Virus genome (UHGV): UHGV-1549180
Reading direction: 5' to 3' (one strand)
Source of the DNA: a virus
Length of the DNA stretch: 10,241 nt
Below are positions 987 to 7,140 of the stretch, in pieces. Position numbers and translations under genes: made by a program. The notes under the pieces were generated by a model that worked only from the letters and a program-made list of their open reading frames with translations, searched no databases and was not told the DNA's origin. Position 1 is the first letter of the stretch. Every line of letters starts with the position of its first letter.

Positions 987-1062
987 GATTTACTCTCCCC
1001 CAAATAAAAAGGCCTGCGATTACCAGCAGGCCTGTTACAAGCTCAGTGATGTAGATGGTCAT
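979..1062 (-). CDS. 27-aa hydrophobic micro-protein (MTIYITELVTGLLVIAGLFIWGRVNRG)
   Basis: ATG at 1062..1060 immediately follows the stop of the upstream ORF (TAA-ATG). GGAG lies 6 nt upstream. One TM-like segment. Below the ORF-track length cutoff. Confidence 0.25.
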   Translation of the reverse strand: MTIYITELVTGLLVIAGLFIWGRVNRG

Positions 1063-1350
1063 TTAATACTCCGTCACGTTTTCCTGTCGCCACGCCTCGT
1101 CATATTCCGATTTCGGCATATTAGCGATGTAGCTATATGGCGACCCTGATTCAAGTTGCAGGAACTGGTGCGATTGCTCGTCAAGGAACAACGGGACACC
1201 ACCTTCCCAACCTTCGCCGTTACGTTGTTTTTCAAGCATCAAAACAGATGCCGGAGATGCCAGTAGCTGTTCGTCCTTCTCTGACATCTTTTCACCACTC
1301 TGAACTCTCTGTAACGCTCTCTCGCGAGCCTTGTTACGCCAGATGATAAA
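1063..1350 (-). pseudogene. C-terminal segment of the replicative helicase in the -1 frame (FIIWRNKARE ... KQRNG ... to stop at 1063)
   Basis: This frame carries the DnaB-family C-terminal signature (IIWRNK, EKQRNGEG, LFLDEQSHQF). The upstream frame carries helicase motif H4 (GSGAITDLTDN) and then runs into unrelated sequence and a stop at 1239. The frames join at the T4 run (coding strand) at 1348-1351. Confidence 0.6.
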
Positions 1351-2942
1351 AGGTTGTCTGTCAGGTCTGTTATCGCTCCAGAGCCTTTTACGTCCATTTT
1401 CCCGGTTGGTTTTTCTTCGCTGTCTCCTTTTCGCGAGTGAGTAACGAGAATGACGTGGGAGTTTGTTTTGTTTTTGAAGTCGCAAATCGAGTCAACAAAC
1501 GCCTTCTGCCCGTTATAGTCATCGTCGCCTATGCCACATTTCATCAGGCTGTCGATGATGAATAACTGGATCCCGTATCGGCGGCGAGCGTAGTCGAATA
1601 TTTCGATCAGCCTGTCGGCTTTCGCCGTTCCGGTCAGGCCAAACACCCAAAGTCTTTCGTCATAAAATTTAAATGCAGAGTCAATTTCCAGCACTGGCGG
1701 CATCTTGCAGCACGTCGCCTGACGGGTAAGGCGCTTAAGGAGAATACCAGGCTTCAGCTCAAGTGACGCGATGCACGTCTTCACACCCTGACGCATTGCC
1801 TCAAGTGCCATATGCCCGACAACCTCCGTTTTTCCGTGACCGTTCACACCATTGACCAGCGTCAACTCTGCCTCACGGAACTGGAATTTATCTGCCAGAG
1901 ATTCCCACGGTGGATTAAACAGATACTGCTGCTTGCCGTAGAAAGCGTTGATAGTGTCCTGGTAAAACTCTCGCGCGCTGTAGAGTTCTTCAGGATCGAA
2001 GTAGGATGCCGTGCCGATGTACTGCCAGATTTCATCCTCGGTAACACCGTTCATCAGGCATTCGTTGATGTCTTTGTACGGCAGAGTAACAAGACGGCAA
2101 CGATGTTCACCGAGTCGGCTTGCGATTTCCCTTGCGGCTTCACGACCAACATCATCAACATCCATCGAGATGAATATTTCCTCAAACCTGTCGAGGTTGT
2201 GATACTCAAACTCAATCCACTGTTGCTTAGCGCCTTTCCCGCCACCAAACGGCACGGATAACGCCGAGATGCCGTATTGCGCATAGCTCATACAATCAAT
2301 TTCGCCTTCGCAAAGTACAACCGCCCTCACGCCAGCGTCCAGAGCCTGCCATCCGAACAGACAAGGTTCGCAATCACCTTCTGCCATAATGACTTTCTTC
2401 CCGTCCGGGCGCTCAGTGCTGATTCGCTTTACCTGCAACAACTCACCATCGCGTTTGTACGGAATCACCAGAGCATCCAGTTCTCGCTCTCCATTCCACA
2501 CCTTGCCGCTGACAACCTCGTAGCGCTTTACGATTTCTGGCGATATGCCACGCGATTGCAGGTACTCAAGATGGGATTCTGTTCTGGTAACGTAGCGGGC
2601 GATTTTCTTGCGGTCAGGTCTGGAGAATTTCTTCTCACGTTTGGCATCGAAATGGTGATCGTCATCCTTGATTCCGAGAAAGGCTTTCGCTTCCTGCATA
2701 GCCTGATGCAGGTTAATTCCACGACATGCCATCCACAAATCAAGCATGTCACCGCCGTCTCCCTCAGCGAAATCAGCCCATTTTTTCTTGCCGCTAAGGT
2801 TGACCTTAAGGCTGTTTCCCTTGTCACCGTTGACGTTACCGGCAACCCACTCATGCCCCTCTTTCTTGCCGTTTGGCAACAGGTGCGGAGCCACCCTGTC
2901 AACCTGCGCCCAAAGCAGGTCACTGAGTTCACTTGGCGTCAT
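1239..2942 (-). CDS. bifunctional toprim primase / DnaB-like (RecA-fold) replicative helicase; C-terminus truncated by a frameshift
   Basis: 567-aa ORF. Central Toprim-like region (VVLCEGEIDCMSYAQYGI), Walker A (GVNGHGKTE), Walker B-like (LFIIDSLMK) and H4 (KGSGAITDLTDN). The last ~37 aa look like out-of-frame read-through. Confidence 0.75.
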   Translation of the reverse strand: MTPSELSDLLWAQVDRVAPHLLPNGKKEGHEWVAGNVNGDKGNSLKVNLSGKKKWADFAEGDGGDMLDLWMACRGINLHQAMQEAKAFLGIKDDDHHFDAKREKKFSRPDRKKIARYVTRTESHLEYLQSRGISPEIVKRYEVVSGKVWNGERELDALVIPYKRDGELLQVKRISTERPDGKKVIMAEGDCEPCLFGWQALDAGVRAVVLCEGEIDCMSYAQYGISALSVPFGGGKGAKQQWIEFEYHNLDRFEEIFISMDVDDVGREAAREIASRLGEHRCRLVTLPYKDINECLMNGVTEDEIWQYIGTASYFDPEELYSAREFYQDTINAFYGKQQYLFNPPWESLADKFQFREAELTLVNGVNGHGKTEVVGHMALEAMRQGVKTCIASLELKPGILLKRLTRQATCCKMPPVLEIDSAFKFYDERLWVFGLTGTAKADRLIEIFDYARRRYGIQLFIIDSLMKCGIGDDDYNGQKAFVDSICDFKNKTNSHVILVTHSRKGDSEEKPTGKMDVKGSGAITDLTDNLLSSGVTRLARERYREFRVVKRCQRRTNSYWHLRHLF

Positions 2943-3046
2943 GATTCCCTCAGATTGAGATTTTTAAACCAGAAATCGACAAACGAAATACTTAACCAGC
3001 CGTGGTTATAACCAGCGACCAGTAGCGATTTGATTTTTGATTTCAT
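2939..3046 (-). CDS. 35-aa micro-ORF between O and the helicase (MKSKIKSLLVAGYNHGWLSISFVDFWFKNLNLRES)
   Basis: ATG lies 3 nt after the O stop, preceded by AGGTG. Its TGA overlaps the helicase ATG (ATGA). Could instead be untranslated linker. Confidence 0.2.
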   Translation of the reverse strand: MKSKIKSLLVAGYNHGWLSISFVDFWFKNLNLRES

Positions 3047-3049
3047 GGT

Positions 3050-3910
3050 TCACCTGTCGAAAAACACGTAGCCAGTTTTCGATACGGTGATTGCGGATGA
3101 TGGTTTGGATTGTGGTTGAATAGTTTCTGGCTTCTCGTCGTTCCAGCGCTGACCGTTCAGGTAGCTCGATGGTAACAACCTGTCGAATCCGAACTGCTTA
3201 CCATTCCTGCATGCGATGTCTTCTGCCAGCATCGTGGCAAACTCGCTTGCCGTCCCCCTGGTAGTTTTACGCCATTCCCTGAACTGTGTTCTGAATGCCG
3301 AAGCTGCGTTTTTCTTCCCGGCCTTCCGCATGCCTGTACACCAGAATATTTCCTCGAATGCCTTGTCGGTTTCTTCGTGACGGTCAGGTGATTTTTCACA
3401 CTCCGTCCGAACACTTTCGGACATAGTGTTTTTATTATTTCTTTTTTCTTTTGTAATAGTTTCTTTTGTGTGTCCCTGTTTTGGTGACAGCGCTGTCACC
3501 GTTTTGGTGACACTTTTTGTCACCAATGCAGTGACATTATCACCAGAGTAGTGACACCCTTCGATTTGCCATTCCTCGATGTTCTTGTTGGGCCCGATTT
3601 GCTGGCCTTCGCGAAGGATAACCTTCATCGCGATAAGCTCATTCTTGGCCTTGTTTACCTTCTGTCTTGGCAGCCTGGTAATTTGAGCTAACTGACTATC
3701 AGAGATGCGATCCATCTTTTTACCGTAGCCGTATGTTTTACGGCATATGGCGTGGGCAACCTTGCTCTGATTTTTCGTTAAATCTGCGCCGATAAGCTCT
3801 TCATACAGGGCATTTGCAAGACGGGTATAACCATCTTCAACTTCTGCCACACGACGCTCCACAGGCCGTTGTGAAGGCCTTAAATGTGTTACGGTTGCAA
3901 GATTACTCAT
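3050..3910 (-). CDS. O: replication initiator protein, lambda O-like (origin-binding)
   Basis: N-terminal region matches the lambda O N-domain as recalled (DDGYxRLxN, GADLTKxQxKV, RKTYGxxKxMDRIxDSQL, FGPNKNIxEW). The ori iterons lie inside the coding sequence, as in lambda. Confidence 0.85.
3425..3475. other. AT-rich DNA-unwinding region of the replication origin (inside the O gene)
   Basis: About 50 bp of mostly T/A (tgtttttattatttcttttttcttttgtaatagtttcttttg) directly beside the iteron block, the same iterons-then-AT-rich order as lambda ori. Confidence 0.6.
3483..3557. repeat. ori iterons: repeated GGTGACA / TGTCACC half-sites arranged as inverted repeats
   Basis: GGTGACAGCGCTGTCACC (3483-3500, perfect 18-bp palindrome); GGTGACACTTTTTGTCACC (3506-3524); GTGACATTATCACC (3531-3544); GTGACAC (3551-3557). 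Confidence 0.7.
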
Positions 3911-4744: not shown

Positions 4745-4815
4745 AGTTTACCTGTAGGTAAAAAAGCAAATCAATACCCATAGGTTATTTACCGGCAGGT
4801 AATCAAAGATAGAAT
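4745..4815. promoter_or_regulatory. OR operator region with divergent PR (minus strand) and PRM (plus strand) promoters
   Basis: Operators TTACCTGTAGGTAA (4748-4761), weaker ATACCCATAGGTTA (4774-4787) and TTACCGGCAGGTAA (4789-4802). PR on the minus strand: -35 TTGATT (4769-4774), 18-bp spacer, -10 TAAACT (4745-4750). PRM on the plus strand: -35 TTTACC (4788-4793), -10 TAGAAT (4810-4815), giving a leaderless or near-leaderless cI start. Confidence 0.65.
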
Positions 4816-6820: not shown

Positions 6821-7004
6821 TAAGAATCAATGGTGTGGACAATTCAAGCGATGCAATGGATGCAAGCTGCAATCGGAATGCATGGTTAAGCCTGAAGAAA
6901 TGTTTCCTGTAATGGAAGATGGGAAATATGTCGATAAATGGGCAATACGAACGACGGCAATGATTGCCAGAGAACTTGGTAAACAGAACAACAAAGCTGC
7001 CTGA
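6804..7004 (+). CDS. ral: Ral-like restriction-alleviation protein (66 aa, Cys4 pattern C-x5-C-x2-C-x5-C)
   Basis: The sequence MTTTIDKNQWCGQFKRCNGCKLQSECMVKPEEMFPVMEDGKYVDKWAIRTTAMIARELGKQNNKAA matches lambda Ral as I remember it, and it sits downstream of N as in lambda. Recall-based. Confidence 0.6.
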   Translation: MTTTIDKNQWCGQFKRCNGCKLQSECMVKPEEMFPVMEDGKYVDKWAIRTTAMIARELGKQNNKAA

Positions 7005-7140
7005 TAGTGGCCTTTATTTTTGGCATAAATAACAGAATAAACACTGCACTGTGTATTCATTCCAACGAGTGAATACACGGAGCAATGTCGCTCGTAACTA
7101 AACAGGAGCCGACTTGTTCTGATTATTGGAAATCTTCTTT

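Follow-up and report, generated by a model that had tools for sequence, protein, structure and literature searches.

The bifunctional primase-helicase gp4 of phage T7 (PDB IDs: 1Q57, 5IKN, and 6N7I) and human Twinkle (PDB IDs: 8E2L and 7T8B) consist of a Toprim primase domain joined to a hexameric helicase domain of the SF4 RecA type, which has a Walker A motif and motif H4; the protein described here shares this arrangement. In T7 gp4, motif H4 comprises residues 480–500 and a DNA-binding loop residues 503–513; Arg522 is an arginine finger acting on the neighbouring subunit, the critical role of which was confirmed by mutagenesis, and the acidic C-terminus mediates contacts with partner proteins (PMC1616965). 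The lambdoid and P22-like primase-helicases of PHROG 239 (WP_001331794, gp55 of phage mEp043 [YP_007111555], gp61 of phage ES18, and the Sf101 protein) are all single ORFs of 626 aa, and their genes occupy the same position as the gene studied here, downstream of an O-like initiator and upstream of the nin region.

The stretch of DNA analyzed here, hereafter the window, was the virus genome UHGV-1549180 of 10,241 nucleotides. The primase-helicase gene of the window was found in two overlapping ORFs in different frames (Table 1). Frame A reads ...GSGAITDLTDNL and continues into 36 unrelated residues, LSSGVTRLARERYREFRVVKRCQRRTNSYWHLRHLF, up to a stop at 1241–1239; before this tail it ends with ...KGSGAITDLTDNL. 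The −1 frame contains, in this order, ...FIIWRNKARERALQ...MLEKQRNGEGWEGG...VTEY, including FIIWRNK and KQRNG, and the four T residues of the coding strand at 1351–1348 (T4) lie inside AACCTTTTATCATC. Re-reading the ORFs of the window gave the same coordinates for both ORFs and for T4 as the initial annotation, which had also described an unrelated tail of about 37 aa; the tail is present, and its length is 36 aa.

When positions 1000–3000 of the window were searched with megablast, the region was found in 1805 of 5426 complete Escherichia coli genomes and in 384 phage records, and full-length matches with up to 99.4% identity aligned 2002 subject bases with the 2001-base query. A single ORF of 1881 nt, annotated as 'toprim domain-containing protein', represents the gene in E. 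coli YY76-1 (WP_001331794) and in phage mEp043 (gp55); its neighbours are the O-like replication initiator on one side and the nin region on the other. The codons at the site are CTT TTC ATC in YY76-1, CTT TTT ATC in mEp043, and CTTTTATC in the window; read from the preceding codon, the window has AAC CTT TTA TCA, compared with AAC CTT TT[C/T] ATC in intact copies. Alignment with intact homologues showed that exactly one base is absent between 1348 and 1347, bearing out the junction at CTTTTA and the −1 direction of the change that had been proposed at first sight. When one base was put back between these positions, a single 626-aa ORF was obtained with either base. The proposal that a fifth T repairs the frame was thus correct in that one restored base rejoins the frames, but T is only one of the two possible ancestral bases (C or T). 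The repaired protein was identical to WP_001331794 at 624 of 626 residues, and at 95 of 95 residues after the lesion. Because the repaired gene forms one 626-aa ORF with this level of identity, it was confirmed that the two ORFs are one gene split by a single missing base, far beyond what chance would produce.

Table 1. Features of the split primase-helicase gene in the window, contigs encoding the same product, and other small lesions of the gene
Feature	Location	Strand	Description
Frame-A ORF, 567 aa	1239..2942	(−)	Residues 1–531 authentic primase-helicase; residues 532–567 out of frame
Overlapping −1-frame ORF	1063..1485	(−)	Stop at 1063
Lesion	1347..1352	(−)	Coding strand CTTTTA, compared with CTTTT[C/T]A in the intact gene; codon 532 (Phe)
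Out-of-frame tail of the frame-A product	1239..1349	(−)	36 aa and stop; without similarity to the family
Stranded 3' part, −1 frame	1063..1347	(−)	Residues 533–626 and stop; protein 100% identical to intact homologues
Upstream partner, lambda-O-like replication initiator	3050..3910	(−)	286 aa, intact; PF04492 Phage_rep_O, phrog_277
Contig L003	ERZ28657215, ZELL14-1_SAMEA2467035 scaffold_3183		12.7 kb
Contig L004	ERZ1689842, NODE_1773		6.6 kb; coverage 2.1x
Other lesions, 1-nt deletions	Codons 490, 492, 514, and 567		
Other lesion, 10-nt tandem duplication	Codon 542; L010:4335-6225 (Logan SRR4241815)		AGAGCGTTAC; products of 553 aa and 74 aa
Other lesion, 13-nt deletion	Codon 526		

The initial annotation had left room for intact homologues that end naturally at about 567 aa. 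In the protein cluster at 90% identity, which has 5632 members, 13 of the 15 members listed were 626 aa long, and this possibility was dismissed. The version of the site with five T residues (T5; codon TTT) had an exact match in 61 of the 286 complete E. coli genomes carrying the stretch, and about 225 of the 286 were one base off this version, consistent with TTC. The closest relatives among the loci compared had TTC, and one T5 copy was about equally close. The base lost may therefore have been a C flanking the T4 run, as these codons suggest, rather than one T in a contraction from T5 to T4, which slightly weakens a reading of the lesion as a homopolymer error.

In Pfam searches, Toprim_2 (PF13155) matched residues 209–296 (E = 2.3e-12; 47.5 bits against a cut-off of 22.1) and AAA_25 matched residues 357–507 (E = 2e-6; 28.2 bits against a cut-off of 27), and DnaB_C was matched by the intact protein only, up to residue 594 and below the threshold (23.8 bits against a cut-off of 27). 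The best-matching PHROGs family was phrog_239, 'DNA primase/helicase' (E = 1.9e-171). Frame A contains the SF4 RecA-type helicase domain from about residue 355, with the Walker A motif GHGKT at about 368–372 and motif H4, GSGAITDLTDN. Among solved structures the best matches were those of T7 gp4 (5IKN, 6N7I, and 1Q57; E = 2.7e-23 to 3e-21); the T7 gp4 primase fragment (1NUI) was aligned with an E value of 2e-13, and human Twinkle (8E2L) was matched with an E value of 6.5e-14. The alignments with T7 gp4 and Twinkle spanned residues 190–539 approximately, through H4 (that of phmmer with T7 gp4 stopped at 539), and paired GSGAITDLTDNLFIIWRN with T7 GSGALRQLSDTIIALERN, which places codon 532 at about T7 residue 500. 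The C-terminal piece alone had no significant match to solved structures. Judged by its sequence, the protein is a T7 gp4/Twinkle-type (SF4) bifunctional primase-helicase, a member of this group by descent with a predicted truncated product, and the Pfam, phrog_239, and T7 gp4 matches agree with the naming of the gene as a replicative primase-helicase in the initial annotation. A complete helicase domain in one frame was absent from the window, as frame A departs from the family after residue 531.

In the stranded 3' part, the strand that follows H4 (IIWRN) is succeeded by a loop rich in insertions, then by KQRNG and the C-terminal tail. We infer that KQRNG is the predicted arginine finger, equivalent to Arg522 of T7 gp4 and to the arginine finger of DnaB, on the basis of motif knowledge, the T7 gp4 study (PMC1616965), and the sub-threshold DnaB_C match, rather than of a direct alignment. 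Translation from the normal start would yield a 567-aa protein in which the Toprim primase domain and motifs H1–H4 of the helicase are preserved. Missing from this product would be the β-strand that follows H4, the last DNA-binding loop, the C-terminal tail, and the predicted arginine finger, which acts in trans. Because coupling of NTP hydrolysis between the subunits of the hexamer depends on the arginine finger, we predict an inactive helicase. None of the starts in the −1 frame could make up for the lost strand: two ATGs, at 1287 and 1239, are situated downstream of this strand, and the −1-frame ORF that begins with the TTG at 1485 has out-of-frame sequence as its first 44 residues. At 1237–1241, the frame-A stop overlaps a −1-frame ATG (TGATG) that opens a 58-aa ORF, MLEKQRNG..., an overlap that is probably coincidental; because of this ATG, a 58-aa fragment was called as a gene at L004:5600-5776.

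Phage lambda relies on P plus the host DnaB in place of a primase-helicase of its own. In a phage of the present type, the O-like initiator and the phage's own primase-helicase constitute the replication module instead, and a prophage with this lesion is therefore predicted to be unable to replicate its DNA autonomously. The gene is best explained as part of a lambdoid mEp043/ES18/Sf101-like prophage of a gut Escherichia.

To describe the distribution of the frameshifted allele, we used a 61-nt query centered on the site, for which there were matches in 289 complete E. coli genomes and in 18 phage records. The deletion was found in none of them; each match had the extra base, with 62 subject bases aligned at 98.4% identity. 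No match to the 32-nt frameshifted junction itself was obtained in species-representative genomes, IMG/VR, or JGI metagenomes. Among the complete E. coli genomes and the phages, coverage of the window stayed below 80% in every record. The exact 567-aa product was encoded on two ENA gut-metagenome contigs, L003 and L004, both of which carry CTTTTATC and which belong to different ENA analyses with different styles of contig naming. L004 differed from the window by two SNPs. L003 carries a cassette of about 330 bp in the place of a short divergent patch of the window at 6989–7045, and L003 ends one base short of the first base of the window. The allele is common to at least two to three non-identical sequences, possibly from the same or related read sets. 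The cassette of L003 (5356–5735) contains small ORFs and lies just downstream of a ral-like gene; a cluster of SNPs flanks it and the phage is otherwise identical, so that the two carriers of this frameshift allele appear to differ by the presence or absence of a moron-type element.

The allele could be an artefact of sequencing or assembly, in which case the DNA in the sample would be intact and one base would have been dropped next to or within the short T run. The location of the lesion at a short homopolymer, the coverage of L004 of only about 2.1x, and the absence of the allele from the 289 complete E. coli genomes, the 18 phages, and the genome, viral, and JGI metagenome scans are in line with such an error, and the start of the window within 1 nt of the end of L003 means that the assemblies might share reads. 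On the other hand, the deletion recurred in three sequences that are not identical to one another and that come from two or more separate ENA analyses. The contig names resemble the output of short-read assemblers, and in data of this kind a T4/T5 run seldom gives rise to single-base indels. If the ancestral codon was TTC, as in the closest relatives, the lost base was not homopolymeric at all. Furthermore, when the window was aligned with mEp043 over about 5 kb at 98.7% identity, there was a single other 1-nt indel, which is intergenic at 4760; the assembly is therefore not prone to indels, and no change other than the lesion in the primase-helicase gene broke a frame in the alignable coding sequence. 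There was no decay after the lesion, with 0 amino-acid changes in 95 residues, a result that has been counted in favour of an artefact and that fits a very recent mutation and an artefact equally well. The event is regarded as recent, because of the identity of 624 of 626 residues after repair and the lack of downstream decay. Because the allele recurs in other contigs and no other frame-breaking indel occurs in about 5 kb, we consider a real mutation much more likely than a sequencing error, which is an improbable source of the allele. The ranking in the initial annotation, with a real mutation first, a sequencing error second, and programmed slippage last, was sensible, and the recurrence in two non-identical contigs shifts the balance further toward mutation. 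We conclude that the lesion is very likely a genuine and evolutionarily recent 1-base deletion in codon 532 of the gp4-type gene of a lambdoid prophage, with predicted loss of the helicase and of replication. The indel at 4760 consists of A6 in the window and A5 in mEp043 and UPEC129, and is situated in the cro-cI intergenic region, where operators and promoters lie.

Orphan C-terminal fragments of 74 aa (MSEKDEQ...) and 58 aa (MLEKQRNG...) were called as genes on many contigs. We considered whether the C-terminal fragment is a separately conserved gene with its own start, as the initial annotation had allowed, and rejected this, since every inspected case was broken upstream by an IS element, a deletion, an indel, a gap of Ns, or the context of the contig; the orphan calls are broken copies. 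Small lesions other than that of the window are listed in Table 1, and large deletions were also found. The allele with the 10-nt duplication was recurrent, being listed for six samples with at least seven further similar places. L011 has a run of 10 Ns at nearly the same place as this duplication. IS3- and IS21-family elements were inserted in the 3' third of the gene in Shigella and E. coli chromosomes (L006, L007, L016–L020, L022, and L023) at reference nucleotides of about 1484–1490, 1526–1528, 1561–1567, and 1687, and these insertions are independent inactivations in decayed prophages. None of the other inspected indel alleles was at the site of the window, and a hot spot at the T run was not found. 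The gene has thus been inactivated independently in many other prophages of E. coli and Shigella, which is what ordinary prophage decay would produce.

Runs of N inside the gene were present in two records. One of these, phage vB_EcoP-720R6 (L009; ON470605), has a run of 19 to 20 Ns at about reference nucleotide 1466, and its annotation as 'DNA primase/helicase (x2)' is due to an assembly gap and not to a biological split. Matches in three pieces raised the possibility of a naturally split helicase in viable Stx2 phages, which was also rejected. The 'P' gene of phage vB_EcoP_24B (L026:1830-4736) is one ORF of 968 aa with an in-frame, intein-like insert of 342 aa, which has LAGLIDADG/Hint hits and lies exactly in the Walker A loop (GHGK/ACPLNEP...VATHN/TEVVG); further alleles with the insert were found at L021:3284-6001 and in L006. 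The insert seems to start with Ala-Cys and not with Cys, which could mean a non-canonical class of intein. In Min27 (NC_010237, L027:2156-2165), the gene is annotated as two genes of 860 aa and 111 aa because, compared with 24B, CAAAAACAAAACAAACTCCC contains two insertions of 1 nt each at a distance of 12 nt; the insertions are probably sequencing errors in the record. The 111-aa fragment of Min27 matches the full length of phrog_23248 ('DNA primase'), and the PHROGs families phrog_23248 and phrog_32971 are made of such C-terminal fragments.

Another reading is that the truncated protein is itself useful, either as a primase-only form or as a dominant-negative subunit. In the latter case it would poison the helicase hexamers of related phages that superinfect, and the host would keep it as a defence. 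In favour of such a function, the primase domain and the linker are intact and in frame, as is most of the helicase domain, the allele is present in more than one contig, and C-terminal lesions of the gene recur in other prophages. Against this, the recurrence reflects ascertainment, as orphan C-terminal fragments were what was searched for and only lesions near the 3' end give rise to these. The lesions are also heterogeneous (IS elements, deletions, and Ns), as neutral decay predicts, nothing shows selection on the truncated form, and the three carriers are so nearly identical that recent common descent explains the persistence of the allele. We therefore regard a useful truncated form as highly unlikely, and hold the same low expectation for a combined version in which the allele is maintained because low-level slippage at CUU-UUA yields sufficient full-length helicase to keep the phage viable beside a mostly primase-only product, or because the product acts as a dominant-negative subunit.

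Slippage has also to be considered in its own right, since a −1 slip of the ribosome at C CUU UUA would give some full-length protein beside the truncated form. A −1 slip at CUU-UUA would restore exactly the wild-type ...DNLFII..., and the allele persists in more than one contig. However, the junction C CUU UUA is not an X XXY YYZ heptamer: its first triplet is not homopolymeric, so that the P-site tRNA would have to re-pair from CUU to CCU and only the A-site tRNA could re-pair. The 77 nt downstream folded with −17.6 kcal/mol (z = −1.4), and 18 of 200 shuffled sequences folded at least as well; by inspection of the sequence, there was no Shine-Dalgarno-like stimulator at the customary distance of 10–14 nt upstream. 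The two-frame arrangement occurred in 0 of 307 homologous copies (289 E. coli genomes and 18 phage records), so that selection cannot have acted on any stimulatory element. Transcriptional slippage would need a run longer than T4. Programmed −1 frameshifting was rejected for want of a slippery heptamer, a significant downstream structure, and conservation, and we give recoding of any kind almost no weight. Two products made in this way would be comparable to tau and gamma of E. coli dnaX or to the two forms of T7 gp4, and dnaX is likewise a replication gene in which the 5' part is followed by a 3' part in the −1 frame. However, the shift in dnaX ends the protein early by design, whereas the gene of the window would need a shift to rescue the protein, and the junction of the window has no slippery heptamer, no stimulatory elements, and no conservation.

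The locus is an ordinary pseudogene, made by a recent frameshift that is most likely a true mutation in a well-known replication gene of phages, and it requires no new mechanism. The two ORFs should be annotated as one frameshifted primase-helicase pseudogene and not as two genes, and the prophage should be predicted to be replication-defective. Phage replication genes are often inactivated independently in the prophages of enterobacteria, and the locus is one more example. As phrog_23248 and phrog_32971 indicate, a gene that is called in pieces in a deposited phage record can give rise to a small, spurious protein family.

Compared with T7 gp4, the similarity of the window protein is distant only: its N-terminal 190 residues do not align to T7, its loop between the strand after H4 and KQRNG is about 20 residues longer, and the equivalent of T7 residues 500–566 approximately is out of frame. 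The relation to the lambdoid and P22-like primase-helicases is far closer, with DNA identity of 98.5–99.4% to the E. coli, mEp043, and Sf101 copies and of about 87% to ES18 gp61; whereas these genes are all intact, that of the window is without one base in codon 532 and is split. Like the defective prophages of E. coli and Shigella, the window has a single lesion in an essential phage replication gene in an early region that otherwise looks intact, but the −1-nt lesion in codon 532 was found only in the window and in two near-identical metagenome contigs.
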